Shown in pieces: positions 17,556 through 64,000 of a DNA stretch of 64,000 nt (position 1 is the stretch's first letter; each line of letters starts with the position of its first letter). The stretch comes from a virus (taxonomy: Duplodnaviria > Heunggongvirae > Uroviricota > Caudoviricetes). The DNA is taken from positions 803-64,802 of the IMG/VR virus record IMGVR_UViG_3300008262_000042. One strand, 5' to 3'. The notes under the pieces are model-generated. The model worked only from the letters and a program-made list of their open reading frames with translations, ran no database searches and was not told where the DNA came from. Both the position numbers and the translations under genes were made by a program.

Positions 17556-17867
17556 TTATTTACTACCTTTAATAACGTCCATTAATATCTTTGAGATGGA
17601 GTTTAATGGTACTATAAAAGATATTACATTTTTGTATGGGTTTCTTTCATTATAATCTAAGGCAATACCTGAATCTCCAAATCTTTTTTGAAGAGCTACG
17701 CTTATTTTATTCGCCAACTCTTGAGTTTCTCTTGGATCTTCTGGTGGTTGACTCATTACGAATTGTAAGTTGATTCCTTTTTTTGTTGGAGCACTAGAGA
17801 TTTCAAACTGAAGTGTTAGGCTTTGTCCTAGTATTGTAATTGGGTATTTTGGGTTTAATGAGCTCAT
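17556..17867 (-). CDS. hypothetical protein (103 aa)
   Basis: Minus-strand ORF. Confidence 0.35.
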   Translation of the reverse strand: MSSLNPKYPITILGQSLTLQFEISSAPTKKGINLQFVMSQPPEDPRETQELANKISVALQKRFGDSGIALDYNERNPYKNVISFIVPLNSISKILMDVIKGSK

Positions 17868-17887
17868 CTATGTTTTCTTATAAATAT

Positions 17888-21241: not shown

Positions 21242-21253
21242 AATTTGTATAAT

Positions 21254-22854: not shown

Positions 22855-22870
22855 TTTATAAAATATTAAT

Positions 22871-23599
22871 TTATATGTATTGATTAAAATGGGTTTTTAA
22901 TACCTCTTCTCTTTCATAATTAGTAATTCCAGTTAAATGAGCAATAAAACTTTCTTTAGTCCATTCATTTATTATTAAATTTTGTGCATTAGGTCCAGTT
23001 CGAACTGGATCATTTAACCACGTTTTAGTTTTTGTTAAACAAAGAGGAACGCTATTTAAGTATTTATGCTCTAAAATTTTAAAACAATTTACTATATCGT
23101 TATGTTGATGTATTATATTTAGTGTAATTTGTTCAGCCATAATATTATGTAAATAATATTGACTAGTTTCATAAAATTTATTGAATAAATCATTTACATC
23201 TTCTGTACGACGAATAATAAAATTCCCTGTGCTAAATCCATTTTTTCCAGCTGGACCTCCTTCATAGCATAACCAATCATATGAACTATAAAAAGTATGC
23301 TTACTATCTATCATATCATCTATAGTAATATTTGGATTTGTTATTATTGAATCTCCATCTAACCACATAACAACATCATATTGTTGTAATAATGTAAAAC
23401 ACTCCCAAGCTCTAACAAATCCTATATAAGATGTGCCTATATTTTTTTTAGTAAATCCACATTGTTCTATTTCATTAAAATGTCGTTTTATAATTAAGTC
23501 ATAACTATGTTGTTTACAATATTTTAATTTTGAATTTAATGTTAAATCTAAAACATTCCACATTGATTGATCAGCTCCAGTTACTACAACTTTATTCAT
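22871..23599 (-). CDS. putative nucleotide-diphospho-sugar transferase-like protein (242 aa)
   Basis: WLDGDSII DxD-like motif; weak. Confidence 0.3.
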   Translation of the reverse strand: MNKVVVTGADQSMWNVLDLTLNSKLKYCKQHSYDLIIKRHFNEIEQCGFTKKNIGTSYIGFVRAWECFTLLQQYDVVMWLDGDSIITNPNITIDDMIDSKHTFYSSYDWLCYEGGPAGKNGFSTGNFIIRRTEDVNDLFNKFYETSQYYLHNIMAEQITLNIIHQHNDIVNCFKILEHKYLNSVPLCLTKTKTWLNDPVRTGPNAQNLIINEWTKESFIAHLTGITNYEREEVLKTHFNQYI

Positions 23600-25242: not shown

Positions 25243-26551
25243 TAAATTTGTTTAATACAACTTCTATATAATCAATCTTTTCTTTATCTATTACTGGAGA
25301 TGTGCCTAGAAAGAATGTATCGGTTGTAACCTTTCTTGCGATTGGATATTTTTCTATTACTTCTTTTGGATCCATCAAACCCGCATACGCTGGTTGCAAC
25401 ATTATATTTCCAGCAAAATACGGTCTTGTTTGTATTTTATTAGATTCAAAAAATTTACAAATATCTGATCTTTTAAATGGAGCACCATCTTTTATAGTAA
25501 TTGGAAAAGCAAACCAATCTACATCTGCGCCTAATTGAGCTTCATGTAAGTGGAAATATTCATTATATTTAGAAAAAACATTATATAGGTTTTTATAGTT
25601 ATTTCTTCTTTTTATACCTATTTCCTCTAATTTTTCCATTTGCACTAATCCAATAGAGGCCTGTAATTCTATGGGTTTTAGATTATACCCTATTTCTTCA
25701 TATACATACTTATGATCAAATAATTCGTCTGGTATACTTGGCACCCAATTATTAAATCTGCAACCACATGCTCCATTTTCTAATAGATTCTGTTTACCAA
25801 TACAAAAACAACCTCTTCCCCATTCTCTAAAACTTCTTATAACTCTTTCTAGTATAGGATCGTCTACTGCTACAAATCCGCCTTCTCCCATAGTTATATG
25901 ATGCGCTGGATAGAAAGAACAACTTGCCATTTTACCGAAAGATCCTAAAGGTTTCCCTTCATAAGTTGAACCAAGTGCATCACAACAATCTTCAAGTAAT
26001 ACTAATTTGTATTTTTCTACAATCTCCATTAACCTTTTCATATTCGGAGGATTACCAAGAACATGCGCAAAAGTTATTATTTTTACATCTGGATTTTCTA
26101 TGCATGCTTGCTCTACTTGATCTAAATCTAAATTAAGTGTATCTAATTCTATGTCTACAAATATTGGCTTAAATCCTACTTGCAATATTGGATTTATAGT
26201 TGTTGGAAATCCAGCTATAGGCGTAATTACTTTGGTGCCTTTAGGTAAATTAGCATATCTTTTTGAAGTCATTGCTAACATCATCAATAGATTTGCGCTA
26301 GATCCACTATTTGTTAGTAAACCAAAATTTTTACCAAGTTTTTTAGGAAATTTTCTTTCAAACTTTGTAGCTTCAGCACCTAATACTAGCCACTCGCTTA
26401 ATAGAGTTTTAACAGCTACTATATACTCTGCTGAATCAAAATATGGACCTGCATATTGAACCCAATCTTCTCCAGCTTTCCATGATTTTTTGCTGTGTTT
26501 ATCTTTTATATATTGATCAACTAGTGATACTATTTCTTTTTCCGTAACCAT
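25223..26551 (-). CDS. DegT/DnrJ/EryC1-family PLP/PMP enzyme, E1 (DdhC/RfbH)-like NDP-4-keto-6-deoxyhexose 3-dehydrase
   Basis: Aspartate-aminotransferase-fold sugar-aminotransferase architecture (GSSANLLMM..., DALGSTYEGKPLGSFG). The position of the PLP lysine reads SFYPAHHITMGEGG (His instead of Lys). A Cys-rich segment GCFCIGKQNLLENGACGCRF follows. Confidence 0.65.
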   Translation of the reverse strand: MVTEKEIVSLVDQYIKDKHSKKSWKAGEDWVQYAGPYFDSAEYIVAVKTLLSEWLVLGAEATKFERKFPKKLGKNFGLLTNSGSSANLLMMLAMTSKRYANLPKGTKVITPIAGFPTTINPILQVGFKPIFVDIELDTLNLDLDQVEQACIENPDVKIITFAHVLGNPPNMKRLMEIVEKYKLVLLEDCCDALGSTYEGKPLGSFGKMASCSFYPAHHITMGEGGFVAVDDPILERVIRSFREWGRGCFCIGKQNLLENGACGCRFNNWVPSIPDELFDHKYVYEEIGYNLKPIELQASIGLVQMEKLEEIGIKRRNNYKNLYNVFSKYNEYFHLHEAQLGADVDWFAFPITIKDGAPFKRSDICKFFESNKIQTRPYFAGNIMLQPAYAGLMDPKEVIEKYPIARKVTTDTFFLGTSPVIDKEKIDYIEVVLNKFIDGKTK

Positions 26552-26558
26552 TTTTTAT

Positions 26559-26807
26559 TTATAAACTATTTAGATCTAAATTAGAGTTATTCATCTTAAT
26601 TATCAAATCCACAAGAGTGCTAATTTGTGTACTCTTTATAACATTATCGCAATTTATATTATTCCAATAATCATTGTATTTATCTCTTGGAATAGCATTC
26701 CAAACTTTACTTATTGGATTATAATGAAATATCCAATTAAATAAACAATCATTTTCTTCTGAATTTGGATATACATTTTCGTAATCCTGATAAGTATTTT
26801 GTTTCAT
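26559..26807 (-). CDS. hypothetical protein (82 aa)
   Basis: Minus-strand ORF. Confidence 0.3.
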   Translation of the reverse strand: MKQNTYQDYENVYPNSEENDCLFNWIFHYNPISKVWNAIPRDKYNDYWNNINCDNVIKSTQISTLVDLIIKMNNSNLDLNSL

Positions 26808-29468: not shown

Positions 29469-30920
29469 TTAATATACTAATTTGTGTGTTATTTTTTTTC
29501 TTGGTAATTTTTCTATTTTTATGAATTCGAAGTCCTCTTTTGGCTTCCATTCACTAAAAGTTTTTTCTATAGATGATATGACATTTTTACTCATATTTGT
29601 ACTACTCATCATAGACTCATCTGATGTTGCCCAGTCTCTTCCTTTCATGCCTCTATGTATTCTATCTTCTGGAGTTAGGTTATATACATTCTCTATAGCA
29701 TTAGCCACATCTCTAAAATCGCATCTATCATCGAATATGTATGGCGTAGGTATAGAACCAACTATTGACATATTAGTAGGAAATACTGGCATTGCCCATA
29801 CTCCATGTTGTCTATATTTACCAAAATGATTAGAAGGGAAATCTTTTGTAAAATCTACCCAATTTCCTTTTTCATCTTCAAATCTAAGTTGATCTTGCAT
29901 ACCGCCTGTAACATTAGCAATGATCATAGTGCCAGCCATCATAGATTCTGTTAATGATAATCCCCAACCTTCATTAGATGATATTAACGCAGTAACGTCT
30001 GCGATATTATACATGTAATTTAATATATTAGTAGGTACCGCGCCTTGTTCAAATTTTACTTTTTGATATTCAGGATCACATAATAATTCAACTACTGCAT
30101 TAAGATTAGTTCCATTCTCATCCATAGCTTGCGTATGCAATAATAATGTACACTTCTTAGCTTTCTCTTTTCCTATGCTATCACAGAATAGTGCATATGC
30201 TGCGATAAGATCAGAAGTACACTTTCTACGAATATTTCTAGCATTATAGAAAACTACAAACTCTGGTTGATCTTCACCGAATAAGTTCTTTTTATATGAT
30301 TGTAAACCTTCATACTCCTCTTTCATAAATTCATTTATGGGGTAGAATAGTCTATCATTGATACCATGAGGAACGTAAGTAATAACTTTGTCTTTTGCTT
30401 TTTCTCCTAAAACTAATTCGTGGATATTTTTAGTTTGTTTAGATATTGACATTAATAAGTCACATGATTCATAATATGGCTTATTATATAAAGGAGCAGG
30501 ATAGTCATCCCAGATTGATAAGTATAGTATAGGTATTTTTTTTCTAATTTCATTTTCCATTTGAAATAACCACACCCAATATCTAGGATCAGTAAATAAC
30601 ATGATCGCATCGGGTTTTTCAATTTCTAGTATCTGTCTAACAATCTCTGGTGTTCCATATCCATTGCATGGATAAAGCGTCACAGAAGAGTCTGGGATAT
30701 TCATGGTCTTATTCGTATCTTCTGATAGATCAAACCTTTTGCCGTAATCTGGATGATTGATAGCAGCTCCTAAATTAACCCAATTGAATCTGTGAGAAGT
30801 GCCTATAACTATTTCTCTTGACATTGTAGCGATACCACTTGTCATTCGAAGATCGTCACTCATTAGTAAGATCTTCTTTCTTTTTGATTTTTCAATATAA
30901 CCTTCTGGTAAACTTTGCAT
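29469..30920 (-). CDS. glycosyltransferase, GT4/GT-B-like (483 aa)
   Basis: NEGWGLSLTESMMAGTMIIA matches the GT4 E-x7-E motif. Confidence 0.55.
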   Translation of the reverse strand: MQSLPEGYIEKSKRKKILLMSDDLRMTSGIATMSREIVIGTSHRFNWVNLGAAINHPDYGKRFDLSEDTNKTMNIPDSSVTLYPCNGYGTPEIVRQILEIEKPDAIMLFTDPRYWVWLFQMENEIRKKIPILYLSIWDDYPAPLYNKPYYESCDLLMSISKQTKNIHELVLGEKAKDKVITYVPHGINDRLFYPINEFMKEEYEGLQSYKKNLFGEDQPEFVVFYNARNIRRKCTSDLIAAYALFCDSIGKEKAKKCTLLLHTQAMDENGTNLNAVVELLCDPEYQKVKFEQGAVPTNILNYMYNIADVTALISSNEGWGLSLTESMMAGTMIIANVTGGMQDQLRFEDEKGNWVDFTKDFPSNHFGKYRQHGVWAMPVFPTNMSIVGSIPTPYIFDDRCDFRDVANAIENVYNLTPEDRIHRGMKGRDWATSDESMMSSTNMSKNVISSIEKTFSEWKPKEDFEFIKIEKLPRKKITHKLVY

Positions 30921-37667: not shown

Positions 37668-39290
37668 TTATATTCCCATCATTCCATTCATAGGATTTTT
37701 ATTATTATCATTTTTATCTTCTACAGAAAAAACAACCGATTCTGTTGTGAGGATTGTACCTGCTACTGATGTTGCATTACGTAGTGCAGTAATTACAACT
37801 TTAGTTGGATCTATAATACCAGCTTCTATAGCGTTAACAATTTTATGATTTTTTGCATCATATACTTCACCTTCGCCTGGTACTCTATTCCACCAATCCT
37901 CAATACCTGCGTTTGATAGGATCGTTTTAAATGGTGCCTGAAGTGCCTCTCTTACGATGTCTTTTGCGATTGTTGAAGTAGTGGTGTGTTCATTTACATA
38001 ATTCAAAGATAGCCTATATAATACACTGCCGCCTCCAGGAACAATACCATCAGCTAATGCAGCTTTTGTGGCAAATAGCGCGTCTTCTAATCTATCTTTT
38101 TTCTCTTTTATTTCAATATCAGAGTTTCCTCCTACATTAATGATTGCTACTCCGCCTACCATTTTGCCTAAACGTTCTTGTAACTTTTCTTTCTCAAAGA
38201 ATGATGTCGCTCTATCAATTTGATCTTTGATTTCAATTGCTCTACTTTCAATAGCTGCTTCATCTCCTTTTCCGTCTACGATTGTTGTTTCTTCTTTTGA
38301 TACATTAACTAATTTACAAGATCCTAATTGTGCACTTAATTGAGTAACATTAATTTTATCTAGTTTATGACCTTTATCTTTTGAGATTACTTGCGCTCCT
38401 GTTAAAATTGCAATATCTTCTAAAATTAAAGTCTTTCTTTCTCCAAAATCTGGAGCTTTAACTGCACACACTTGCACTATTCCTCTCATTTTGTTTACAA
38501 TCATAGTAGCTAACGCTTCTTCTCCAAAGTCTTCTGCTACAATAAGCAACGACCTATTATTAGTATTAGCAATCTGTAAAACTGGAAGTAGCTCTTGTGC
38601 AGTAGAAATTCTACCATCATAGAGTAATATATAAGGATTTTCTAAGTTCGCTTGCATAGTAGTATTATTCGTAACAAAGTACGGGGATTTATAACCTCTA
38701 CTAAATTGCATACCTTCAACTACTTCTAAACTAGTTTCACCACTTTTAGATTCTTCAATAGTAACTACGCCATCTCTTCCAACTTTTTGTATTGCTTCTG
38801 AGATTAGGTAACCCACTTCTTCATCATTATTTCCAGAGATTGTTGCAACTTGTTTAATTTGATCTTCTGTAGAAATATCAATCGAAACTTTCTTAACTTC
38901 TTGAATTACTTCTTGAATTAAATTATCAATTTCATTTTTAACTTCAACTGCATTATTCCCCTGTCTAATTTCTTTTAAGCCAGCTTTTACCATTGTTGAA
39001 GCAATTATAGTTGATGTTGTTGTACCATCTCCTGCTTCATTAGCTGATTTAATAGACACCTGTTTAACTAATTGTGCTCCAATATCCTCAATATCATCTT
39101 CTAATTTATTAAATGACTTTGCAACGCTTACGCCATCTTTTGTAATTTTTACTTCTCCATTTTGCTCTCTAATCAAAACAGTACGTCCTCCTGGTCCTAA
39201 TGTAGAAGATACTGATGCGTTTAATTTTTCTACTCCAGCTAATAGACGTTCTTTAAGATCTTGTCCAAAAACATTTTTTGTTGTACTCAT
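37668..39290 (-). CDS. groL: chaperonin GroEL (Cpn60)
   Basis: 540 aa; N-terminus [10 protein letters not shown]...; GroEL-wide collinearity including GDGTTT and AVKAPGFG-like AVKAPDFG; Gly/Met-rich C-terminal tail NPMNGMMGI. Confidence 0.9.
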
Positions 39291-39296
39291 AATTTT

Positions 39297-39590
39297 TTAG
39301 TTTTCTAATATTGCTAATATTTCTGTTTCTTTGATTAAGATATAATCTTCGTTATTTAATGTGATTGCCATAGATCCCATTTTAGGAATTAATACTTTTT
39401 GGCCAGGTACTAATTTTGTTTTGTAATAATCACCTCTATGCCAATTGTAAGTATCACTAGCGCTTACAACTTCGCCCATTTCAGGTTTTTCTTTACCCAT
39501 GTCTGGAATAACAATGTTTCCATAGGTAACCTCTTGTTCTTCTATTTTTTTTAGAACTACGATTCCATTTAGTGGAGTTAACATATTCAT
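39297..39590 (-). CDS. groS: co-chaperonin GroES (Cpn10)
   Basis: 97 aa, immediately upstream of groL; LNGIVVLKKIEEQEVTYGNIVIPD and GEVVSAS pattern of GroES. Confidence 0.75.
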   Translation of the reverse strand: MNMLTPLNGIVVLKKIEEQEVTYGNIVIPDMGKEKPEMGEVVSASDTYNWHRGDYYKTKLVPGQKVLIPKMGSMAITLNNEDYILIKETEILAILEN

Positions 39591-39602
39591 TTTTATTTTT
39601 GT

Positions 39603-39818
39603 TTATTTGGTTAATAACTCTTGTTCTTTTTCTTCAACTAACTCTAGATCTTCTATTTTATCACAAAAGTATAATTTGCCATCTTTTCTAAAGACACTAT
39701 TAGCATCTAGCCATTCTTTAACTAGATCTACGTCTTTAACGTAAGATTCCTCATACACTTTCTTTAACAGAAATAGGTCTTCGTTAATTTTTAAAAATTG
39801 TTTGCAGATTGAAAACAT
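39603..39818 (-). CDS. hypothetical protein (71 aa)
   Basis: Minus-strand ORF. Confidence 0.3.
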   Translation of the reverse strand: MFSICKQFLKINEDLFLLKKVYEESYVKDVDLVKEWLDANSVFRKDGKLYFCDKIEDLELVEEKEQELLTK

Positions 39819-39844
39819 AACTTAAGCACTCAGGAAGATACGTA

Positions 39845-40315
39845 TTAATTGATTTGTACTTTTTTTACTTGTTTTTGTTCAGAGAAAGGAACGCTAATAG
39901 TTAGTAAACCTTTATCTAATTTTGCGGTTAATTTTGATAAATCGAATTTAGATGCTAATTTCCATCCTAAATCGAATGAACCTTTTTTAATTCCTTTGTA
40001 AATTACTTGTGTGTCTGGAGTATCTTTCTTTTGATACGTAATTCTTAGCGTATCGCCTTCAGTTAAGATTTCAATGTCTTCTTTGTTTAAACCAACCGCG
40101 GCGACATCAAATACGATTCCTTCTTCAGTTTCGTAAATGTCTGTGGGGTGTGATACTTTTTGTAATAAATCTGTGAATGTGGATGATGTGTTGAAGAAAT
40201 CTCTCCACAATAGATCGAACTGATCCAATGAAAATGGTCTAATGTACGTCATGTCGTTTTGTTTTGTGTTCCCGTTATAGGTGAACTGTTTAATAATTGT
40301 TTTTTTAAAATTCAT
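39845..40315 (-). CDS. small heat-shock protein (Hsp20/alpha-crystallin)
   Basis: 156 aa; alpha-crystallin-domain-like EDIEILTEGDTLRITYQK...GLLTISVP. Confidence 0.7.
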   Translation of the reverse strand: MNFKKTIIKQFTYNGNTKQNDMTYIRPFSLDQFDLLWRDFFNTSSTFTDLLQKVSHPTDIYETEEGIVFDVAAVGLNKEDIEILTEGDTLRITYQKKDTPDTQVIYKGIKKGSFDLGWKLASKFDLSKLTAKLDKGLLTISVPFSEQKQVKKVQIN

Positions 40316-40386: not shown

Positions 40387-42693
40387 CTAGTGACCATCGC
40401 GAAGATTCTTAGCAATCGCAGGTGGAGCAACTAATTCTATGCTTAACTTTGTTGTATTCTCCATTTTATCTTGGACTATTTTAGCTGCTTCTTCTGCTTT
40501 AGATTCTTCTACTTCCATTACGAGCTGATCATGTATCTGTGCTATTACTTGGCCTCTTATATTTTTATTTTTAAATTCTCTATTTATCGCAATCGCTGCT
40601 CGATTTACTATAGAAGCCGCTAGACTTTGAATTTGGAAATTCATAGAGTTATTTAATCCATTAACATAATCTCTAACTATGCCTTTAGCTTTATCTTTTC
40701 CGTATTTATATTCTAATTGTTTTTTGAATTCCCAATCGAATAAACTTTCACCAAATACTTCATGTAATTTTTTAACTTTTGGTAAATGCCTAATTCTTCC
40801 AACTTGACTTGTTATATAACCGCTATCTTTTGCTTTTTGTTTAGATTGTTCCATCCACTTCTTAAGTTCTGGAAATCCGTTTAGATAACCATCAACAAGT
40901 TTTTGTGCTTCTTTTTTAGTTACTCCAATTGTCATACCTAATGCATACGCTCCCATACCATATGGTATACCTAATGAATATGATTTGGCTTTATTTCTTA
41001 ATTGAGGTGCTACCTTTTTTAAGAAGTTTGGAGATTTTTTATCTGGTGAGTACTGATCTAATTTCTCTGTTTTAATAGCGATAGTAGAGTAGAAGTCCCA
41101 GTTGTTTCTAAAAATATCTTTAAGTCCATCATCTCCTGATACGTGAGAAAACACTTTAGGTTCAAGAGATTCATAGTCACAGTCTATGAAAATGTTGCCC
41201 TCTTTTGGTACAAAGAATGCACGAATCATATTATTGTATTCTATAACGATTGGATCATCATCACCTTCTTCTTTAGGTCTAGGTAGCTGTTGAGCATCAG
41301 ATCCATATCTACCAGAAACTGTAGCATGTTGTTTGTAGTAGAAGTAATAGTTTCCTAACTCTTCATTTTCTAAGAAACGATCAATATACGTAGATTTTAT
41401 TTTAAGTAGTTTGTTATATATACGTAAGCTTTTTGCCCATGGGTGCTTATCTGCTATTGATTGTATTAGATCATCATCAAATTGTGGCTTACCTGTTTTT
41501 GTTGAAGATAATGGTTTAATACCTAAAGCAGCAAAAGCTATCTCTCCCATATGGTCTTTTGACTGTATGTTAAAATAACTACCATTATTATTATCTTTCC
41601 ATAATTTTACACAAACCTTTATAATCACATCTTCAGATAACAACTTCTCATCTCCTGTAAGAAAGAAGTTTTTTACGTCACCATCAGGTAAGTTTGCTAC
41701 TGAATTAGCATTTATGGAATATTTACCACTTGCTGATCTTGGAAACTCTAATTTTAATTCATCTATAAGTTCTTGAGCAAATGTGCCTTTACTATTAGGT
41801 GGATATGCTTCCATAGCTTTGTAGACTATCCAGGTGCGCACTGCTTGCTTTTCTAATAAAGCTTCAATAACTATATTATGGTATTTTTTTAGATCTTCTG
41901 CGATCTTTGTTTTAGCTTCTGTTATAAGCGGCATATCTAATCTAACACCACATTCTTCCATAGGTATTGTAACTTCTTTATATAGTGGCATTACTTCATC
42001 TTCATAAAAGAATTTTACTAGACCTTCTTTTTCTAATATTGTAGAAAAGTAGTAGAATATTCTTAAAGCTAAATCAGTATCTGCAATAGCATATTTTGCT
42101 AGTATTTCTAAATCTGCTTTATAAATTTCATAGTTATCTTTTGATGTAGATCCACCATTCTTTTTTATTGATGCTTTTAGTTCTATTTGCTCTTCATTCG
42201 CTTCTTTTTCTACATCAAGACCTATTTCTTCTTGAACCATTTTAGCAATTTCTTTTAATGCAAAAGGTGAATTAGATCCAAATCCAGCGCCTTCCTCTTT
42301 AACAGTATGAACCATTAGCATCGTATCTGCGTGTATGTATGGAGTTAGATCTATTCCATAGAAACATTTTACGAATCTACAGTCAAAGGACAGATTGTGC
42401 CCAATAATACTTTTACTAGTAAGTAGTTGAATGATTTTTTTAGCAATATCATGACAAAGCTCACCATGTATTTGATGATCTTTTAATTCATCATTTTCAA
42501 ATACCATAGTAGGTAAATAATATCCTGAGCCTGGTGAAGTACTTACAGAAAAACCAATTATTTTTCCAGTTCTAGGATTTAATGAATTGGTTTCAGTATC
42601 GAATGATATTAGATTTGATTCTAAAACATATTTAGCAAGATCCTTTATTTTTTCTAAAGAATCTACTAATACATAACTTTTTTGTGTAGACAT
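40387..42693 (-). CDS. family A DNA polymerase with 3'-5' exonuclease domain
   Basis: Exo I LISFDTETNSL; Pol motif A IDCDYESLEPKVFSHV, motif B KAKSYSLGIPYGMG, motif C QIHDQLVMEV. Confidence 0.9.
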   Translation of the reverse strand: MSTQKSYVLVDSLEKIKDLAKYVLESNLISFDTETNSLNPRTGKIIGFSVSTSPGSGYYLPTMVFENDELKDHQIHGELCHDIAKKIIQLLTSKSIIGHNLSFDCRFVKCFYGIDLTPYIHADTMLMVHTVKEEGAGFGSNSPFALKEIAKMVQEEIGLDVEKEANEEQIELKASIKKNGGSTSKDNYEIYKADLEILAKYAIADTDLALRIFYYFSTILEKEGLVKFFYEDEVMPLYKEVTIPMEECGVRLDMPLITEAKTKIAEDLKKYHNIVIEALLEKQAVRTWIVYKAMEAYPPNSKGTFAQELIDELKLEFPRSASGKYSINANSVANLPDGDVKNFFLTGDEKLLSEDVIIKVCVKLWKDNNNGSYFNIQSKDHMGEIAFAALGIKPLSSTKTGKPQFDDDLIQSIADKHPWAKSLRIYNKLLKIKSTYIDRFLENEELGNYYFYYKQHATVSGRYGSDAQQLPRPKEEGDDDPIVIEYNNMIRAFFVPKEGNIFIDCDYESLEPKVFSHVSGDDGLKDIFRNNWDFYSTIAIKTEKLDQYSPDKKSPNFLKKVAPQLRNKAKSYSLGIPYGMGAYALGMTIGVTKKEAQKLVDGYLNGFPELKKWMEQSKQKAKDSGYITSQVGRIRHLPKVKKLHEVFGESLFDWEFKKQLEYKYGKDKAKGIVRDYVNGLNNSMNFQIQSLAASIVNRAAIAINREFKNKNIRGQVIAQIHDQLVMEVEESKAEEAAKIVQDKMENTTKLSIELVAPPAIAKNLRDGH

Positions 42694-43187: not shown

Positions 43188-45050
43188 TTAAAACTCATTT
43201 ACAGTACACGCACCACCAGCACAAGCAACTTCATTTTTTAAATCCGTAGTATCATCATACTCTATAACTTTAGATAGATCTATATTTGTTAAGTGTTCTA
43301 CCATTTCATTATACTTTTCTTCAGTACAATCTTCAAAAGGAGCTTGAATATATGTGTGATCTGAATACGGTAATACGGATAATCCATTATAGTATTTTCT
43401 ATTTTCCCACATCCATTTACCTACATTATCCCATTCTCCTTGTTTTATAGATACAGTTGCAGAAATATTGTGAGTATTTTGTCCCGTTACGTGACCTGGT
43501 TTTATCCAATTAGTATAAAAAAACTTAACTCGTTCTAGTAGATCAATTGCAGATTCTGTTCTTAGAATTGATCCAACTGGTGCTTTTTGTGGTACAGAAA
43601 TAACTGCGGTATCATGTGGTCTAAAATACTCGTCTTCTACTAATTCTGGATGGTGGATAGATAGGTGTGTATAGATTGCTTCATTTTTACCTACTCTTAT
43701 TCTTCTAATATAGTGATCATTATGCCAAGCGTGGATTCCACTAGAAGTTCCTAAGGTTAAAGATGATGTTCCAGAAGGTTTGATAGTAGTGCATCTCGCA
43801 GCTGTATTGATACCTAGTATTTTTGCTACTCTTTCATTTTCTTTTCTTACAACATCAGCTGCTTCTTTTAGATCTAGATTTTGTGCCTTTCCTGATCCAA
43901 TACCTGTCATACCAACTCCAATAAGTGCTTCTTTTTCAGTTGTACGTTGCCAAATAGGTCTCAAATAATGGAAATTAGTATAAGATGCTTGTAAAGTTCC
44001 TATAAACGCTGCAGCTTTTACTCTATTGTTAAGATCTTCTTGTGATTGTACATCACTGACATTAACTTCGCATAAATTACAGAATTGATAAGGACGTAAA
44101 GCAATTTCGCAACACGGGTTTGTTCCCCAATCTTTATCGTTTGAGAAATAAATTCCAGGTTCTCCTGCTCCAGAAGCTTCTATTTTTTTCCATAAATTAA
44201 AAAAGAATTCTTCTGTTATTTTATTTCTAAGTAATACAGCTGAATTATTTGCTCTTCCTCTTTGAGGATTTTGTTCCCACCATGCTCCTGATTTTGCTGC
44301 GATCATATCTTGATCATCTGCGCTGAATAAGCAAATTAAAGCGGCTCTTCTAATTCCTCCAGCTAATACTGCGTCTGCAATATGACATACTATATCATGT
44401 ACTTCTATGGTAGTTAATTTGTCATTATCTTCTTTTCTAGATAAGATACCTTCTAACTTAACTAAACATTCTTTTAATGGTTGTGGACCTGGTGCTTTAC
44501 CTCCAGAAGTAATAAGTGCAGCACCTTTTGGTCTAATGTCTGAGAAATCAAAATTAATTACTGATCCTCCTCCAAAATATGATTTGATTAATACTTTAAC
44601 AGCGTCTGCCCAACCTTCGATACTATCACTTATTAGGTATCTTCTATGCTTTTTTTGGTTTGGTTTTCTTATCTCTGGAAGTTTATCAATATGATGAGAT
44701 TGTACTGAATATCCTACGCCTGTTCCGCCTAATAAAAGAAACATAATCTCTGAAAAAGATCTTAGATCGTCAATTGGAAGATAAGCGCAGTTATATATTC
44801 TATTAGGAGAAATTTCTATTGATTTACCAGCAAATTGCATACTTCTCATTGAAGGTAAAATCATCTTATTATAAACTAGCTCATACGCGTCTTCTATTTC
44901 ATTTAACAAATTAGGAAACTTTTTAATATGCATTTCCTTATTTCTATCTACTAATTCTTCCCAAGACTCTCTTCTATTTACTAATTTGTTAAATTTTGCA
45001 TACTTCATGTATACAGTTAAATCACTAAGAATGCTTTGCGTAATGTGCAT
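43188..45050 (-). CDS. ribonucleotide reductase catalytic protein (probably class II, adenosylcobalamin-dependent NrdJ-like)
   Basis: Active-site block NPCCEIALRPYQFCNLCEVN (NPCGE...CNL pattern of RNRs). Single 620-aa gene with no adjacent small subunit or activase. Confidence 0.7.
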   Translation of the reverse strand: MHITQSILSDLTVYMKYAKFNKLVNRRESWEELVDRNKEMHIKKFPNLLNEIEDAYELVYNKMILPSMRSMQFAGKSIEISPNRIYNCAYLPIDDLRSFSEIMFLLLGGTGVGYSVQSHHIDKLPEIRKPNQKKHRRYLISDSIEGWADAVKVLIKSYFGGGSVINFDFSDIRPKGAALITSGGKAPGPQPLKECLVKLEGILSRKEDNDKLTTIEVHDIVCHIADAVLAGGIRRAALICLFSADDQDMIAAKSGAWWEQNPQRGRANNSAVLLRNKITEEFFFNLWKKIEASGAGEPGIYFSNDKDWGTNPCCEIALRPYQFCNLCEVNVSDVQSQEDLNNRVKAAAFIGTLQASYTNFHYLRPIWQRTTEKEALIGVGMTGIGSGKAQNLDLKEAADVVRKENERVAKILGINTAARCTTIKPSGTSSLTLGTSSGIHAWHNDHYIRRIRVGKNEAIYTHLSIHHPELVEDEYFRPHDTAVISVPQKAPVGSILRTESAIDLLERVKFFYTNWIKPGHVTGQNTHNISATVSIKQGEWDNVGKWMWENRKYYNGLSVLPYSDHTYIQAPFEDCTEEKYNEMVEHLTNIDLSKVIEYDDTTDLKNEVACAGGACTVNEF

Positions 45051-45385: not shown

Positions 45386-46765
45386 TTATAATCCAAGTTC
45401 GAAAAACTTATTAGATAAATATTTTTTCTCCTCTTGATCTATTTTAGAAAATCCAGATTTTCCATTTTTTTCTGATTCTACTACTAAATCACCATCATCT
45501 AATTCAGAAGAATCGATTTCTATGTGGCCATTTGCGGTATTAATTTTAGCTGCGAATGTCATACCATCAGACCCAAATCTATTCTTAATAACATGTATTC
45601 TACCAGTACCTGCAAGCTTATCACCTCTTTTTCTTGACAATGACATCGCAAAGTCAGCAATCATTATTTTATCATATGATCCTGCGATTTTATCTGCTTC
45701 AATAATATCATCTTTCGAACCAGTTCTATTTACTTGAGATACAGTCCATATAGGCGTCTTTAGTTGCCTTGCTAAACCCTTAATTGATGTATATACGTCA
45801 TCGATTTGATCTTTTCTTTCTGATGATTTCGATCTAGATCTAAGTAAGTCTACATAGTCTATGATAATCAAATCTGGTTTGTGTCCTAGAGTTGTGCACT
45901 TTTGAATATGGCTTTCTATTGTTGAAGGCGTAGTTTTACCCATAGGAAACTCTCTAATAATCAATTTAGCGGGTAAACTATCTACAGTACTTTCAATCAA
46001 AGATCTATATTCTTTTTTATGTATATTTTGGAATTCTATTCCAGTAAGCATTGAGTCATATCTTTTTGCTACGTACTCTTGTGATAGTTCTAATGTGTAG
46101 TGACAAACATTATAACCTGCTTTTACAGCCCAAGCGCCAAGATTAATTAAGAACCAAGATTTACCACCACCTGGAGATCCTAAAACCATGCCTAAATCTC
46201 CAGCGCCTAATCCACCCATTAGTAATTCATTAATATGTGGCCAAACAGTAGGAACTGCGCCTCTTTCTTCTAATCTATATCTAGTTTCTATATCTTTTTC
46301 GTATTCATGACCTAGATCTCTGCTTTGTCCAGCTTTTAGAGCATTATCAATAATATTTCTAATATCATCGTATTGACCTTTTGATAGTAATTCTACAGAA
46401 TTCATCAAAGCTTTCTTTAGCTGTTGATTTTTACAGAAGTTGCTAAACTCTATTTCAACATACTCTTGATCTTCATTAATAGCTTTTAATGATTCCTTTA
46501 ATTGCTCAACGACAGTGATTCTTAATATTTCATTCTCTATCTTTTTTACTTCTACGGATAAGTACTCTGGAGTTGGATTAGTATGATATTTAGAATAATA
46601 TTTTAAAGTCTCTTCTACAATCCATTTATGCGCTGGATTATCAAACTCTTCTGGATTAAGGAGATCATACACTCCATGAAGAAACTCTTTATGTTTTAAA
46701 AGAGATGATATAACTTTTATTTGGAATGAAATTCCGTACGCTTGTAACGTATTTAATGTACCCAT
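45386..46765 (-). CDS. DnaB-family replicative helicase
   Basis: Walker A GSPGGGKSWFLINL, Walker B LIIIDYVDLL, SQVNR arginine-finger region; 459 aa. Confidence 0.8.
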   Translation of the reverse strand: MGTLNTLQAYGISFQIKVISSLLKHKEFLHGVYDLLNPEEFDNPAHKWIVEETLKYYSKYHTNPTPEYLSVEVKKIENEILRITVVEQLKESLKAINEDQEYVEIEFSNFCKNQQLKKALMNSVELLSKGQYDDIRNIIDNALKAGQSRDLGHEYEKDIETRYRLEERGAVPTVWPHINELLMGGLGAGDLGMVLGSPGGGKSWFLINLGAWAVKAGYNVCHYTLELSQEYVAKRYDSMLTGIEFQNIHKKEYRSLIESTVDSLPAKLIIREFPMGKTTPSTIESHIQKCTTLGHKPDLIIIDYVDLLRSRSKSSERKDQIDDVYTSIKGLARQLKTPIWTVSQVNRTGSKDDIIEADKIAGSYDKIMIADFAMSLSRKRGDKLAGTGRIHVIKNRFGSDGMTFAAKINTANGHIEIDSSELDDGDLVVESEKNGKSGFSKIDQEEKKYLSNKFFELGL

Positions 46766-57142: not shown

Positions 57143-58894
57143 TTATTGAGGTCTTAATTCTCTATTTATTTTAAATCTTAATTGATTTATATCAAATTCA
57201 TTATTAGCATTTTGTAATAATGTTCTATTTACTAGATTAGTCGCAAATGAACTTACAGCTGTGTTATTAGTCGGTATATTACTACTTATCGTACCTATAT
57301 TAGTATTATTAGCTTTTAAACTTTCTGTATTTTTTTCTTTATTATATTTTTGTAAAGTCGTATTCGCTAATATTGTTTCATCTTCAGGTAATTGTTTACC
57401 TCCAATTCTCATAAATCTTTTTGGTAACATACTATGAATTGGTTTAAATGATATACTAACATCAAGATAGTGTGGAAGTTGTCTACCATCTTCTATATCC
57501 CATGAAGTTTCATTCGCGATAGTTATATTAACGCTTTCTAATAATCCTGGAACTCTATAAAAATAATCACCTACAGTTATCTTAACTACAGATGATCTCA
57601 TAATACCACTATTCGAATAATCTGGATATACTTGAGATGCTAATGCATTTAGCTTACTATATAAAGGTAAAAGTTCATCTTTTGATTGCGCAGCTATTCT
57701 AAATGCATATTGTATATTTCTAGTAAATCCTTCATATATATAAAAGTCTTCACCTCTTCCTATATACTTAAAAGCGTTTATTGTTGCTTGGTGACCATCT
57801 GTAATTCCACTTGTCAATAGTGCTCTAAATTGTAAAAACATAGATGAACCGACTTCATCATTGCTTAAGCATTCAAATCCAAACTTAATAAGATCATCAT
57901 TCGCATTACCATTAGTCCATGGATCTCCAGTATTAAGCGCACCTATATCCTTTACATTTATCTTATCTACTATACTATCAGTACCATATGTATAAAATCT
58001 ATAGTCAATAGTATCTTGATCTGCCACTAATAAGTTTTCTAGACCAACTACTGATCTCATTCTTCTACTCGCACCTCTAGTCTTTTTTGTATATATTTGA
58101 TCATATGTCGCAAATCCTTCTGTAGCAGCTTTTGTTGTATCTTCGTATCTTCTAATAGTTGTACTACCTATTCCATAAACTGATCCAGGACCGCCTAAGT
58201 AGTTTTGTATTATATTTCTATCTAGCGATAGACCTAATTGGTTTATTTTATTTATTCCACCAAGTACTCCGCTTTCTCTAGTAACTGGCGTTAACTTTAG
58301 TTGCTGTAATAATAATAATCTATTCTCTAGTCGTACTCTCTCACTATCCATCGTTAATTGACTTCCTACAGTCTTAGCGTAGTATTTAGAAACAGTATCG
58401 ATAGGCATTAAACCTTGTCTTTGTATATGTAAACCAGAGCCTGCATAACCTACTTGCTCTAAAGTGTTTAAACCATCATTATATAGTCTAGTGTTTTCTA
58501 ATATATTATATCCATTTATATTTTGACCAAATATATTTACGCTAGTACCAGTTTCCATTTTAGGATTAGTCAACTGTAATCCTATTTGTTTTTTTATAAA
58601 TGCGTCCCCTCTAGGCTTATCGCTTAAAAACTTTCTTATTCTAGTCTTGTCTATTTCTGCTGATAATGTTACTGTTCTACTTCCTAATTGGATTGTTGTA
58701 GATCCGCCTCTTATAGGATAATCTAAGCCAGTTCTATTTAATGAATAAAAATTTCTTATATTATTTGGAGCATTTTCATCATCTATAGGAAATTGCATAT
58801 AAGGTTGCCCAGACCATCCGCTATCGCGTCTATCAAAAGCAGCAACCCCGTATTTTAAATCCTTTAAACTAGTTCTTAGATCTATTAGTGGCAT
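57143..58894 (-). CDS. tail/baseplate protein (583 aa)
   Basis: Position immediately downstream of the tape-measure gene; no specific motif. Confidence 0.35.
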   Translation of the reverse strand: MPLIDLRTSLKDLKYGVAAFDRRDSGWSGQPYMQFPIDDENAPNNIRNFYSLNRTGLDYPIRGGSTTIQLGSRTVTLSAEIDKTRIRKFLSDKPRGDAFIKKQIGLQLTNPKMETGTSVNIFGQNINGYNILENTRLYNDGLNTLEQVGYAGSGLHIQRQGLMPIDTVSKYYAKTVGSQLTMDSERVRLENRLLLLQQLKLTPVTRESGVLGGINKINQLGLSLDRNIIQNYLGGPGSVYGIGSTTIRRYEDTTKAATEGFATYDQIYTKKTRGASRRMRSVVGLENLLVADQDTIDYRFYTYGTDSIVDKINVKDIGALNTGDPWTNGNANDDLIKFGFECLSNDEVGSSMFLQFRALLTSGITDGHQATINAFKYIGRGEDFYIYEGFTRNIQYAFRIAAQSKDELLPLYSKLNALASQVYPDYSNSGIMRSSVVKITVGDYFYRVPGLLESVNITIANETSWDIEDGRQLPHYLDVSISFKPIHSMLPKRFMRIGGKQLPEDETILANTTLQKYNKEKNTESLKANNTNIGTISSNIPTNNTAVSSFATNLVNRTLLQNANNEFDINQLRFKINRELRPQ

Positions 58895-58906
58895 ATTATT
58901 TTTTTA

Positions 58907-60832
58907 TTACATTTGTTTTATTTCTGGAGAACTGCTTCCTTTAATTCCTGGAGCTTGGTTTGCTGCTCTACTAGAATCTATACTAGGATTATTTGCATTG
59001 TGTTTATGTGTATTTGATGAAATCAGTCTATTATCTACAAGATTATTAACAACTACGGTTGTCATAGATTGATTATTTCTAATATCATATGGATTTACTG
59101 CTTTTGTATTTGTATTACTTGCAGTAGCATTTGTAGCTGCAGCTTGTGATATAGTAGCTGCTCCAAAATCTCCTCCTACTGATCTAATTCTACTTGCCAT
59201 ATCTGCTCCTCCTGATTTGAAAACAGCTGCTTTTGTCATCCACTTATTCTTATCTGTAAATGGTAAAACGGCCACAACTTCAAATAAATCTCCAATAAGT
59301 CCAGATACCATTTCAACTGCGCCAGCAATAGCATCTCTAACCCATTTTATTATCCCCTGTATAGTACTTGGATTAGTTAACATATTTACAAAACCTTCAA
59401 TTTTTTCTATAATACCCGATTTTTCTATAAAATCAACAACTGATTGTTTTATTTTTTCTATAAAAGCCATTAACTTTTCTTGTGTAGAAGCCTGTTGCAT
59501 AGATTGGAAAGCTTGTTCTCCCATGGCTTCTGCCATTGCTTTCTCATTACCATATCTTTTAAGACCTAATTGGTACATTTCTCTGGCGTTCTCTGTTCCT
59601 TTTGCGCCTATACTAGCATATAATTCTTGCTTTTTAAGCATATCTGCTAGTTGATCTCTTGACATTCCCATGGATTGTGCAAAAGATTCTGCAGCTATTC
59701 TATTCATTTTTAGAAATTCTGCACTAGATCCAACTTGTCTATTTATTTCTGCTGCAGCACCTGCAAGATCATTATTTAAAAATAATTCTCTAGCCTTATT
59801 AAAATTCAGCTCTTTACCAGTTAGTATTTGAGCTTCCATTTCTTTAGATATACTAGACTCAAAATCTAGAAATGAATCAGCCATAGATTCTAGATCTTTC
59901 ATTTCCATTCCCATAGCTTTTATTGTCAATAGACTTTTAGTAAGCTGAGATGGATATTTAGAGAATCTTAAGCCTAAAACACCTGAAAGACTTGTTACTT
60001 CTTTTAATACTTGTTGATAATTAAATTGTATGCCAGTTGCTCTTTCAAGACCTTTTACTTGTGCTAATACGCCTTTAACTACGCCTTGTGTTGATTTTCC
60101 TGTTATACTAGAAACTTCAGCTAATCTTGAACGAGTATCTAACTCTAATCCTGCAAATTCTTTTAGCTTTATGTTTGTTTGTAATGTCTCATCAGATAAT
60201 TTATTATTTATACCTAATTGACCTGCTAATTCTGAATAAGATTCTAATAATTTTTTAGAAGTAATAAATACATCTCCTTGATTTAGTGATATATCTTGAA
60301 AATGCCTATTTAGTTGCCTTGCTTGACCGCTTGTCATTCCAAGATTTCTGCCAGCTTTAACTATAGCATCATCTACTCCTACTACAACATCGAGCAAAGC
60401 TGAAAATCCATCTATTAGACCGCCAACTAAACCACCTATAAATGGTATGTTTTTAGCCATACTAGATATTCCTCCTGTAAGCCCAGATACTACACCTCCT
60501 CCTTCTGGAGTTAACGCTTTAAGACCTGAAGTAGCTGCTGAAAGTGCGCCTTGCATTACATTTTTTATAGCATTTTTTGCTTTACTAAAACCCACTACTA
60601 AAGCTGTAGCTATAATAGCAGGATCTAATATATTTTGCATAATTGTTTTTCCTGCTGCTTTTATACCAGCTGCTAATACTTTCCATTTACCTACATTTGT
60701 AACTTTTCCTGTAGCGTCTACTGTTTTTCTTGCGGCGAAACTCATTGCGTTATACGCTTCTTCTCCTACACCAAGATTATCAGCAAATATTTTCATTAAA
60801 TTTCCCGATATACCTAATTGTTTAGAAACCAT
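58907..60832 (-). CDS. tail tape-measure protein, C-terminal part (641 aa)
   Basis: Gly/Ala-rich hydrophobic segments (GGGVVSGLTGGISSMAKNIPFIGGLVGGLIDGFSALLDVVVG), long helical regions, position downstream of the chaperone-like ORFs. Confidence 0.5.
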   Translation of the reverse strand: MVSKQLGISGNLMKIFADNLGVGEEAYNAMSFAARKTVDATGKVTNVGKWKVLAAGIKAAGKTIMQNILDPAIIATALVVGFSKAKNAIKNVMQGALSAATSGLKALTPEGGGVVSGLTGGISSMAKNIPFIGGLVGGLIDGFSALLDVVVGVDDAIVKAGRNLGMTSGQARQLNRHFQDISLNQGDVFITSKKLLESYSELAGQLGINNKLSDETLQTNIKLKEFAGLELDTRSRLAEVSSITGKSTQGVVKGVLAQVKGLERATGIQFNYQQVLKEVTSLSGVLGLRFSKYPSQLTKSLLTIKAMGMEMKDLESMADSFLDFESSISKEMEAQILTGKELNFNKARELFLNNDLAGAAAEINRQVGSSAEFLKMNRIAAESFAQSMGMSRDQLADMLKKQELYASIGAKGTENAREMYQLGLKRYGNEKAMAEAMGEQAFQSMQQASTQEKLMAFIEKIKQSVVDFIEKSGIIEKIEGFVNMLTNPSTIQGIIKWVRDAIAGAVEMVSGLIGDLFEVVAVLPFTDKNKWMTKAAVFKSGGADMASRIRSVGGDFGAATISQAAATNATASNTNTKAVNPYDIRNNQSMTTVVVNNLVDNRLISSNTHKHNANNPSIDSSRAANQAPGIKGSSSPEIKQM

Positions 60833-60840
60833 CTTTTCAT

Positions 60841-61371
60841 TTATAACTGCCTTTTCTCCTTCTTCTGTTTGTCTTCTTTTTCTCCTTCTTCTGTTTGTCT
60901 TCTAGCTAGTTCTAATTGTTTTTCTTGGGCATAAAGCGCTACAGCTTGTATATCGCCTTTACTTTTTAGTATTCCCATCATTGCTTTTTCTATATCATGA
61001 CTTTTGCCTTGAGCGGCTAATCTAGCTCTTTGGGATTCTACGATATTTTTTGCGTCTGCTAATGCATCTTTAGTTTGTTGATCAAAATCTTTATTTAAGT
61101 CAACTAGTTTCTTCTCTTCTATATACTCTTTTTGTTTTAATTTAAGAAGTTCCTGATTAGTTTGTCTTAGATTTATTGAATCTTTAGATAATGTGGCTAA
61201 TCTTGCTTCAATTTTTAAATACGCATTATCCATCTTTTTTAAATCAGATAATGCGTTTTTTAGCAGATTATTATAATCCCCTTGATCCTCTAATAGCTCT
61301 TTTAAATCCCTAATCAAATCTTTTGATGACATTCCTGGATTTTGTGAGCCTGGTGTTGGTGGTGTTGCCAT
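60841..61371 (-). CDS. tail tape-measure protein, N-terminal coiled-coil part (176 aa), separated from the C-terminal part by a tandem duplication
   Basis: Coiled-coil. Its stop lies 8 nt from the start of ORF 58907..60832. Deleting one copy of the perfect tandem repeat at about 60852-60903 joins the two ORFs in frame. Confidence 0.45.
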   Translation of the reverse strand: MATPPTPGSQNPGMSSKDLIRDLKELLEDQGDYNNLLKNALSDLKKMDNAYLKIEARLATLSKDSINLRQTNQELLKLKQKEYIEEKKLVDLNKDFDQQTKDALADAKNIVESQRARLAAQGKSHDIEKAMMGILKSKGDIQAVALYAQEKQLELARRQTEEGEKEDKQKKEKRQL

Positions 61372-61405
61372 TGTATTATACTATACAAATAAATATGTAT
61401 CTAAA

Positions 61406-61729
61406 TTATTTTTTAGATTTAGCTGCGGTAGTCTTATAAGAATATTCCTTAGATGCTTGTACGACTGCATCCGGTATCTTTATTTTTGAGGGATCAGTGT
61501 TTTCTGTAATTTGGTTATTTTGCTGATCTCTCATATCTTCTAGTTTTTTGAGATACTCATTAATTTTTTTTATATTATACTTTCTATGCTGTATTGGCAT
61601 ATCCCAAACTTCAGACCATGAGAATCCCCCTCCGCCATGATAAGTTAATTCAAAACACTCTGTCATAAAAATAGCACGGTATTCCGCCCCAGGAAAGAGC
61701 GGAACCCATATTATTTGTGCGTTATCCAT
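61406..61729 (-). CDS. tail assembly chaperone-like protein (107 aa)
   Basis: Position between the tube and tape-measure genes. Confidence 0.3.
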   Translation of the reverse strand: MDNAQIIWVPLFPGAEYRAIFMTECFELTYHGGGGFSWSEVWDMPIQHRKYNIKKINEYLKKLEDMRDQQNNQITENTDPSKIKIPDAVVQASKEYSYKTTAAKSKK

Positions 61730-61730
61730 A

Positions 61731-62498
61731 TTAGTCTTCTATTTGTGGAAAGAAGAATCCTACGCCCATTGGCAAATCAGTTGTAATCTCTTCGCCATTT
61801 TTTAGTGTGAAAGTAATCTTTGTATCAATATCAGGAGTATTCTTAGCAATATCTTGTCTAAGAGCAATTGCATCTCTAGCTAATAGGTAACCTTCATCAA
61901 TAAACTCTCTTACTGTTTTAGTTGAATAATCTCCATTAACAGACGTTATTTGATGTTTAAGCCTTGTACTTAATTCTCCTATTTCTGTCTTAGCAATCTT
62001 TTTCATACCTTTGATCTCATCATCTATTTTCTTATCATCAGCTATTGTAAGTATCTTATATGTTACTGTATTTTTTGAGTAAGGTAATTCAAAGCTAAAT
62101 TCATTTTTATCTGAAAATTTAGAAAAGTCTAATTCTTTATATTTTAAATCTTGCAGATCTACTACTACAGTTTCTTCTTCTTCTAGACTACTTGCTTTAT
62201 ACTTAAATGAATAATCTTTTCCATAACCTAATATACGAGCTGCTATCAGAAGCGCATTCCGATCACCCAGAGTTAAATCCTCATAGTTTATTTCTGATTT
62301 GATAAGAGACTTAAGCATACGTTCAATCGCGATGCCCTGACGTAACAGGTTCACATTGGTGAGAATGTCTTCAGTTTTAGCTGTCATATATGCCATTTCT
62401 ACAGCTCCTGAAGATAGTGGATTTTCTTTTGCATATAACTTTCCTTTACTAGGAAGATCGATCATTTCTGTTGGGATCGAAAATTTTTTTTCTGCCAT
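61731..62498 (-). CDS. tail assembly/tube-associated protein (255 aa)
   Basis: Position; stop and next start overlap (TAATATGG). Confidence 0.3.
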   Translation of the reverse strand: MAEKKFSIPTEMIDLPSKGKLYAKENPLSSGAVEMAYMTAKTEDILTNVNLLRQGIAIERMLKSLIKSEINYEDLTLGDRNALLIAARILGYGKDYSFKYKASSLEEEETVVVDLQDLKYKELDFSKFSDKNEFSFELPYSKNTVTYKILTIADDKKIDDEIKGMKKIAKTEIGELSTRLKHQITSVNGDYSTKTVREFIDEGYLLARDAIALRQDIAKNTPDIDTKITFTLKNGEEITTDLPMGVGFFFPQIED

Positions 62499-63117: not shown

Positions 63118-63357
63118 TTATTTTTTCTTTGCTGCAGCTTCTTTCTTTTTCTTAGCTTCGGCTTCTTTTTTCTTTTTTGCTTCAGCTTCCTTTTTTTTCT
63201 TATCTTCAGCTTCTTTCTTTTTCTTAGCGTCAGTTTCTTTTTTCTTATCTTCTTTTTTAGCTCCTTCTGATAAGATGCTTAGTTGAGACTTAATGCTCTC
63301 ATAAAGTGCTTTAGGAACTCTGATTCTCAATACTGTATTATCGCTTATATTTTTCAT
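63118..63357 (-). CDS. Lys/Glu/Ala-rich tandem-repeat protein (79 aa)
   Basis: Protein repeats KKKKEAEAKKKKEAEA encoded by a roughly 24-nt DNA tandem repeat (about 5 copies). Confidence 0.4.
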   Translation of the reverse strand: MKNISDNTVLRIRVPKALYESIKSQLSILSEGAKKEDKKKETDAKKKKEAEDKKKKEAEAKKKKEAEAKKKKEAAAKKK

Positions 63358-63377: not shown

Positions 63378-64000
63378 TTAAGAGAAGCTAGCGCCTGTCG
63401 GTAAAATGTTAAAGTTTAAGTAAATGTATTCAGCAGCTCTTGTTGGTTGTAAGTAAATAGTACCAATAAGTTGATTTCTATCAATAACGTCAGGGGTGTT
63501 ATTAGTTTCATCCATTATTACTTGGAATGCATATAGACCTTGACGTTGTTGAACAGTCTCTAAATACGGGTTAACTTGGTTTAAGAATTTATTTCTTGTT
63601 GATTGAGTGTTTGGTTCGAATACCAATGTTTCTCCTATTTGACCGATATAGTCTTTTAGTGATATTAATAGTCTTCTTACGTTTACTCTGTCTAAAGCAG
63701 ATGCTTTTGATTGTAGAGTCTTTTGACCATATATTACTGTACCAACTCCAGGGAAATTAGCGATTGGATTCACTTTTCCTTGATATAGTGTATTTCTTTG
63801 ATTAACGCTTAACTTTCTTTCTGGTTGAAGTACTGTACCCATTCCACCTCTATTAAGACCTGCTGGTGCGAACCATTCTGCAGATACTTTATCATTATAT
63901 TCGTATATAGCTGGAACTAGTGTTGAAGCAGGAATAAAGTTTAATTTACCTGTTTCTCTACTTCTAACTTGTAACCATGGCCAGTATGCTGCAGCGTATG
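63378..64000 (-). CDS. contractile tail sheath protein (C-terminal portion; gene continues beyond the window end)
   Basis: The frame stays open upstream of the annotated Met to the window edge. C-terminal sheath-domain pattern GVGTVIYGQKTL, ALDRVNVRRLLISLK, FEPN, MDETNNTPDVIDRNQL, IYLQPTRAAEYIYLNFNI. Confidence 0.7.
   Translation of the reverse strand, partial: YAAAYWPWLQVRSRETGKLNFIPASTLVPAIYEYNDKVSAEWFAPAGLNRGGMGTVLQPERKLSVNQRNTLYQGKVNPIANFPGVGTVIYGQKTLQSKASALDRVNVRRLLISLKDYIGQIGETLVFEPNTQSTRNKFLNQVNPYLETVQQRQGLYAFQVIMDETNNTPDVIDRNQLIGTIYLQPTRAAEYIYLNFNILPTGASFS

Follow-up and report, generated by a model that had tools for sequence, protein, structure and literature searches.

Two open reading frames (ORFs) on the minus strand of this viral genome, of 176 and 641 amino acids (aa), lie end to end in a tail gene module, and a tandem duplication sits exactly where they meet. 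The locus raises the question of whether we are looking at a gene that is read through by recoding, at a tape measure naturally made of two polypeptides, or at a single gene that has been broken, and, if it has been broken, whether this happened in the phage or in the assembly of its genome. We addressed this question with the whole 64-kb stretch of DNA, referred to here as the window (G+C 30.9%, with almost all genes on the minus strand), and with the contigs and proteins related to it.

The tandem duplication and its effect on the reading frame

At 60852-60903, we found that the sequence TTTTCTCCTTCTTCTGTTTGTCTTCT (plus strand) is present twice, head to tail, as a perfect tandem. The sequence-only reading had recognised this duplication and had counted 25 nt per unit; the duplication was confirmed, and the count was corrected to 26 nt both by Tandem Repeats Finder (period 26, 2.0 copies, 100% match, score 104) and by direct string comparison, in which 60852-60877 and 60878-60903 agree letter for letter. 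The run of period-26 identity is exactly 52 nt long with no extra shared base at either border, and the borders of the duplication are blunt and free of microhomology. Purines predominate in the 26-bp unit, which is of low complexity and contains AGAAGA repeats. No other perfect tandem duplication in the 64-kb window has a unit above 12 nt. When we shuffled the window 50 times, the longest self-match at periods of 20-40 averaged 11 nt and never exceeded 14 nt, as compared to the 26 nt observed, so that no comparable repeat arises by chance. Which copy is called the extra one is arbitrary; BLAST puts the 26-nt gap of the sibling contigs at 60852-60877. Where copy 1 meets copy 2, the letters are GGAGAAAA followed by AGAAGACA, or in longer context GAAGGAGAAAA followed by AGAAGACAAACAG, and the single-copy form reads GAAGGAGAAAAGGCAGTT at the same site.

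Because 26 is not a multiple of 3, the duplication shifts the reading frame and a stop is reached 11 codons later. In mRNA sense, the region reads GCT AGA AGA CAA ACA GAA GAA GGA GAA AA/A GAA GAC AAA CAG AAG AAG GAG AAA AGG CAG TTA TAA, with the slash at the boundary between the copies. Residues 1-165 of the 176-aa ORF are identical to residues 1-165 of the intact protein (100%), residues 166-176 (EDKQKKEKRQL) are derived from the frameshift, and the stop codon TAA is at 60841-60843; the ATG of the 641-aa ORF follows 8 nt past this stop. When one copy was removed in silico, we obtained an uninterrupted ORF of 812 aa that reads ARRQTEEGEKAVINEKMVSKQLGIS across the site. The two ORFs, the shift of frame with its new stop, and the restoration of one tape-measure-like gene by deletion of one copy are all as the sequence-only reading had described them, and the fusion product that it had expected to be about 800 aa long is exactly 812 aa and identical to an existing protein, P0121. 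The features at and around the site are collected in Table 1.

Table 1. Features of the split gene and of the tail genes around it, in window coordinates.
Feature	Position	Strand	Remarks
Sheath-position partial ORF	63378-63842	-	Pfam sheath domains in the gene of the near-identical sibling L006 at this position
79-aa K/E/A-rich repeat ORF	63118-63357	-	between sheath and tube genes
Tail tube protein, 161 aa		-	after the 79-aa ORF; phrog_4542
Baseplate-hub-like protein, 255 aa		-	after the tube gene; PF12322/phrog_150
107-aa protein		-	between the hub-like gene and the split gene
N-terminal fragment ORF, 176 aa	60841..61371	-	ends EEGEKEDKQKKEKRQL before the stop, also given as ARRQTEEGEKEDKQKKEKRQL
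Copy 1 of the unit (mRNA sense)	60878..60903	-	AGAAGACAAACAGAAGAAGGAGAAAA; native frame RRQTEEGE plus the first two bases of a K codon
Copy 2 of the unit (mRNA sense)	60852..60877	-	out of frame, read as (K)EDKQKKEK
Between duplication and downstream ATG	60833..60851	-	in the single-copy allele, one base of the K165 codon plus AVINEK; in the window, out of frame and overlapping the new stop codon
C-terminal fragment ORF, 641 aa	58907..60832	-	starts MVSKQLGIS; residues 172-812 of the intact protein
583-aa protein		-	after the split gene
102-aa protein		-	after the split gene
1527-aa protein		-	after the split gene

The ATG of the 641-aa ORF is preceded by the leader GTTATAAATGAAAAG, which is A-rich and free of a Shine-Dalgarno (SD) sequence and resembles the native gene leaders in the window. 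In the regions upstream of minus-strand genes, we found an SD-like motif in 2 of 45 window genes, and the native leaders are A/T-rich. The near-absence of SD motifs and the A/T-rich leaders fit a Bacteroidota-type host, which would agree with the relatedness to Flavobacterium phages described below. Judged from its leader, termination-reinitiation at the internal ATG is plausible and would make two fragments of the protein.

Identity and genomic context of the split gene

Tape-measure proteins (TMPs) set the length of the phage tail (PMC9022992). The minus-strand genes around the split gene form a contractile-tail module, in which the long ORF takes the position of a tape measure, preceded by the sheath, tube and small-protein genes and followed by baseplate/hub genes; the order of the genes in the module is the same in the relatives and in Immutovirus. 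Among the genes that follow, the 102-aa protein has its best match in phrog_7145, a baseplate wedge subunit, and matches Phage_tail_X below threshold in Pfam.

At the protein level, the N-terminal fragment matches TMP_3 with an E-value of 0.0061 and 16.7 bits, which is below the cut-off of 41. The restored 812-aa protein has no significant match in Pfam, PHROGs or PDB, and in this, as well as in the interruption of its gene in the window contig, it differs from myovirus TMPs. By tblastn, we found similarity (30% identity, 345 aa, E 2e-25) to the 'tail tape measure protein' of Flavobacterium phage vB_FspM_immuto (Immutovirus), an annotation that is itself predicted. In immuto, the genes run from the sheath through a small tube-position protein ('tail completion protein'), a baseplate hub subunit and a small protein to the TMP. 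The two proteins share this gene order, their great length and a Gly-rich hydrophobic segment; they differ in size, with 812 aa for the intact protein here as compared to 1006 aa in immuto. The label 'tape-measure-like' is a reasonable one, with synteny and homology to a predicted annotation as its basis and not a match to a curated family.

Between the sheath and tube genes, the 79-aa ORF carries a 24-nt unit repeated five times (81% match) at 63122-63240 and encodes repeats of the KKKEAEA type. In the more distant relatives L001 and L002, the corresponding ORF has 48 aa, so its length varies.

Elsewhere on the minus strand, we observed a set of chaperone genes at 37668-40315, with a GroEL-like Cpn60 (540 aa, 37668-39290), an adjoining small Cpn10-like gene and an HSP20 (39845-40315), and beside it genes for a DNA polymerase A (40387-42693), a ribonucleotide reductase (43188-45050) and a DnaB-like helicase (45386-46765); for all of these genes, identical sibling contigs supplied the Pfam assignments. 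At approximately 17888-26551, also on the minus strand, there is a sugar-nucleotide/glycosyltransferase cluster with a DegT aminotransferase, GT2, GT4 and GT10-like enzymes, epimerases and E1 dehydrogenase/transketolase-like subunits; such genes are unusual in a phage and suggest that a polysaccharide, the virion or the DNA is modified. The ORF at 29469-30920 corresponds to a gene for a 483-aa protein with a Glycos_transf_1 domain in an identical sibling contig (L011).

Single-copy alleles and the question of recoding

In the protein collections, the 641-aa product sits in a 90%-identity cluster that also includes the 812-aa protein P0121 (NCBI and JGI). P0121 equals the ORF with one copy deleted, residue for residue, and is carried by at least 6 contigs from several samples. 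Apart from one 26-nt gap, the contigs of three separate JGI samples match the window at 100% identity, over 15.1 kb (L006, JGI 3300042691), 10.9 kb (L008, JGI 3300008448) and 4.0 kb (L005, IMG/VR 3300031787), and a fourth contig (L007, NCBI GCA_031545585.1) has the same 26-nt gap and 3 SNPs. Over 30387-52693, two further pieces of this strain (L010 and L011) show 100% identity to the window, which indicates that the window genome is otherwise the same strain. Over approximately 34 kb, the 26-bp insertion is the sole difference between the window and contigs of at least three other samples. When we searched the contigs of IMG/VR and the JGI metagenomes with a pattern that matches either state, only a single-copy contig was found, and the match in the JGI metagenome contigs was the same 5.3-kb contig as in IMG/VR. 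The 176-aa frameshifted product is a singleton cluster in a collection of 15 billion proteins, in which we found no second protein with the frameshifted tail at or near 100% identity.

To look beyond the strain, we used the restored 812-aa protein as a query and found 465 homologues, and most of the best 120 of these are 730-820 aa long with 90-100% query coverage. In an alignment of 13 homologues there is no gap at the junction; E170 is invariant and K171 is near-invariant (at least 90%), and both residues fall within the AVINEK stretch that is out of frame in the window. A single BLASTP HSP covers residues 150-200 in 110 of 124 related proteins. The gene is one ORF in the same gene order for P0003 (800 aa, 67% identity; loci L001-L003) and for P0002 (795 aa, 75% identity; locus L004), and the more distant relatives, at 62-76% identity, have one ORF of 795-800 aa. 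The DNA of the diverged relatives has one copy at the site, with a sequence that is unrelated to the window unit. Since a megablast of 58800-61800 against GenBank phages gave no match, there is no cultured near relative. The identical siblings with one copy, the uninterrupted homologues and the singleton 176-aa product together indicate that the one-copy state came first. By these sequence comparisons, the ancestral and functional allele has a single copy and a single ORF, and the allele with two copies is confined to the window's contig.

The comparison with L004 also showed a patchwork of similarity along the gene. At the nucleotide level, L004 shares 98.7% identity with the window over 58078-60526 and 98.9% over 61363-61454, immediately upstream of the gene, and the approximately 280 N-terminal codons in between have no megablast-level match between the two. 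This suggests that the N-terminal module was exchanged in L004 by recombination and that the gene is mosaic.

The sequence-only reading had named the site a recoding candidate and had also mentioned a naturally bipartite tape measure. A functional arrangement of either sort, be it programmed -1 recoding across the duplication or a bipartite tape measure with a separate N-terminal coiled-coil module, is very unlikely. It would draw on the junction of the copies, where GAA-AAA-G could act as a weak slippery run and where ribosomes shifting by -1 within the second copy would regain the frame, on the fact that the window and two other contigs (L019 and L020, described below) break at about residues 120-165, each leaving a C-terminal ORF of 632-641 aa, and on the N-terminal region of approximately 280 codons that is swapped as a module in L004. 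However, the duplication is absent from identical genomes, and the two-frame architecture is not conserved among the relatives, with one ORF in 110 of 124 homologues. At the site itself, an X_XXY_YYZ slippery heptamer is absent and GAA-AAA-G is at best a weak slippery run; the 87 nt downstream fold at -5.7 kcal/mol (z = -0.34), which is no better than shuffled sequences, and no stimulatory RNA structure is seen there; and this genome does not use SD sequences. Programmed frameshifting was rejected as a result, with no conservation, no heptamer and no structure to support it. A bipartite tape measure is not supported either: all close siblings are intact and breaks occur only in three singleton contigs, in which they differ in kind and position. 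Scanning of the 64-kb window detected no tRNA genes, and a suppressor tRNA or an altered genetic code, considered in view of the in-frame TAG of L019, was set aside.

The site can be set beside known cases of programmed -1 frameshifting, the lambda gpG/gpGT-type chaperones and dnaX. The gene for the lambda gpG/gpGT-type chaperone lies directly upstream of the TMP gene. The window site resembles these cases in that the frame shifts in or close to the tail-length module, at an A-rich run. In contrast to the window site, theirs are conserved in relatives, have a proper slippery heptamer and yield two designed products that share an N terminus; the window site is missing from identical genomes, has neither heptamer nor stimulator and lies inside the TMP-like gene and not in a chaperone gene.

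Two other contigs carry broken alleles of the same gene. In L019 (JGI 3300008448; 1150-1760), there is an in-frame TAG between QMQVMDS and LEANLELK, where relatives read AK, leaving ORFs of 138 and 633 aa. In L020 (ENA scaffold; 1-400), the frame is shifted at an A6 run or a little before it, leaving a partial N fragment and a 632-aa ORF. Together with the window, this makes three breaks, which fall at different positions (about residues 120, 140 and 165), are of different kinds and are each found in a singleton contig. Our search sees only those breaks that leave a long C-terminal fragment, so the sample is biased and the N-terminal clustering is largely an effect of ascertainment. There is a slim chance that the variable N-terminal coiled-coil module of approximately 165 aa can work as a separate polypeptide and that the split alleles are viable natural variants and not dead genomes. 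If this were so, the alleles of the window, L019 and L020 would be expressed by termination-reinitiation in an SD-independent (Bacteroidota-type) translation system, and the tape measure of this clade would tolerate being bipartite.

Finally, the repeat might be a contingency locus that toggles tape-measure expression through phase-variable copy number, since the gain or loss of a copy changes the frame when the unit length is not divisible by 3. This is most improbable: only one or two copies are seen, known contingency repeats have units far shorter than 26 nt, no sibling contig has more than one copy and the diverged relatives have unrelated single-copy sequence at the site.

Mutation or assembly error

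We conclude, with a probability of roughly 90%, that a tandem duplication private to this contig breaks a tape-measure-like ORF that is normally a single one of 812 aa, through either a recent mutation or an assembly error. It is neither a programmed frameshift nor a natural two-gene tape measure, and the lesion is of an ordinary, already known kind. The extra head-to-tail copy of the purine-rich segment would have been added after codon 165, shifting the frame into the stop 11 codons on and leaving the 176-aa N fragment and, from the ATG 8 nt further, the 641-aa C fragment. The second copy would have arisen either as a very recent spontaneous duplication in the phage population of one sample or as an error of assembly joining or consensus. 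If the allele is real, it would be deleterious or at best leaky. Some function might leak through by termination-reinitiation at the nearby ATG, with two polypeptides as the outcome. Another route would be rare -1 slippage on GAA-AAA-G where the copies meet; a ribosome that shifts by -1 at any point of the second copy would be back in frame and make a full-length protein of 821 aa, in which the nine residues RRQTEEGEK are repeated. Adjacent perfect repeats of 26 bp are expected to delete to one copy via slipped-strand mispairing, and such a slipped-strand deletion would readily restore the wild type here.

The lesion closely resembles the frameshift or pseudogenisation by spontaneous out-of-frame tandem duplication that is classical in genes of phages and bacteria, with perfect copies in head-to-tail order, a unit length not divisible by 3, an early downstream stop, a one-copy wild type in the siblings and an expected reversion. 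It differs from the classical kind in having no microhomology and in not being separable from an assembly artefact on the present data. A transposon footprint or target-site duplication was considered and rejected, as 26 bp is too long for one and there is no element or scar.

The sequence-only reading had left three options for the second copy, a recent duplication, an artefact and a polymorphism, and these are still the apt ones, with one copy in every other assembly and two copies here only. We regard a real variant and an artefact as about equally probable. For a real, very recent tandem duplication in one sample, giving a defective or leaky tape-measure allele, we see close to an even chance. 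Such an allele could persist through co-infection with the wild type, restart of translation or rapid reversion. The copies are perfect and there are no SNPs relative to the siblings, which would make the event only generations old; the segment is purine-rich and of low complexity with AGAAGA repeats; a novel copy junction normally needs read support in k-mer (de Bruijn-graph) assemblers; L019 and L020 show that the same gene is found broken elsewhere, by an in-frame TAG and a frameshift; and the ATG 8 nt after the stop, with its native-like, A-rich, SD-free leader, means that both fragments could be made. However, the borders lack the microhomology that simple slippage tends to leave, the allele is seen in one contig only among 15 billion proteins, and one would hardly expect the consensus to carry a frameshift in a virion gene that is presumably essential.

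An assembly or consensus artefact, such as an untrimmed 26-nt overlap or an error in merging overlaps, has a probability somewhat short of even, and in that case the phage in the sample would have a normal 812-aa gene. The insertion as the only difference over approximately 34 kb from contigs of at least three other samples points this way, as do a product that has had no independent sighting and a biologically costly change that is nonetheless the consensus. Exact copies with blunt borders are what an untrimmed overlap would leave, and, more speculatively, 26 equals k-1 if k is 27, as would be expected of a graph overlap left untrimmed. Against an artefact, standard pipelines rarely make internal tandem duplications, and there is no second such duplication anywhere in the 64-kb window.

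For annotation, 58907-61371 is best described as one disrupted tape-measure-like gene (812 aa when intact), not as two genes and not as a case of recoding, and the window contig should be flagged as carrying a private indel. The value of the finding lies mainly in annotation and data quality. If the duplication is real, it would capture a loss-of-function or leaky allele soon after its origin in a natural phage population, and such an allele would be of specialist interest only if it is viable.

We also considered that two strains might have been joined into a chimera at the site. On this point the SNPs of the siblings are uninformative, as three siblings have none on either side, and this explanation was set aside.

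Away from the split gene, the window shows strain-level microdiversity. At 9838-26696, comparison with L013-L016 gave 3-56 SNPs per locus, unlike the 30-64 kb part of the window that is identical to the siblings. The SNPs are found in patches, for example at 22498-22645 and 14638-14765, together with small indels at 12422, 14023, 22548-22552 and 9864-9866, and this patchy distribution suggests local recombination.
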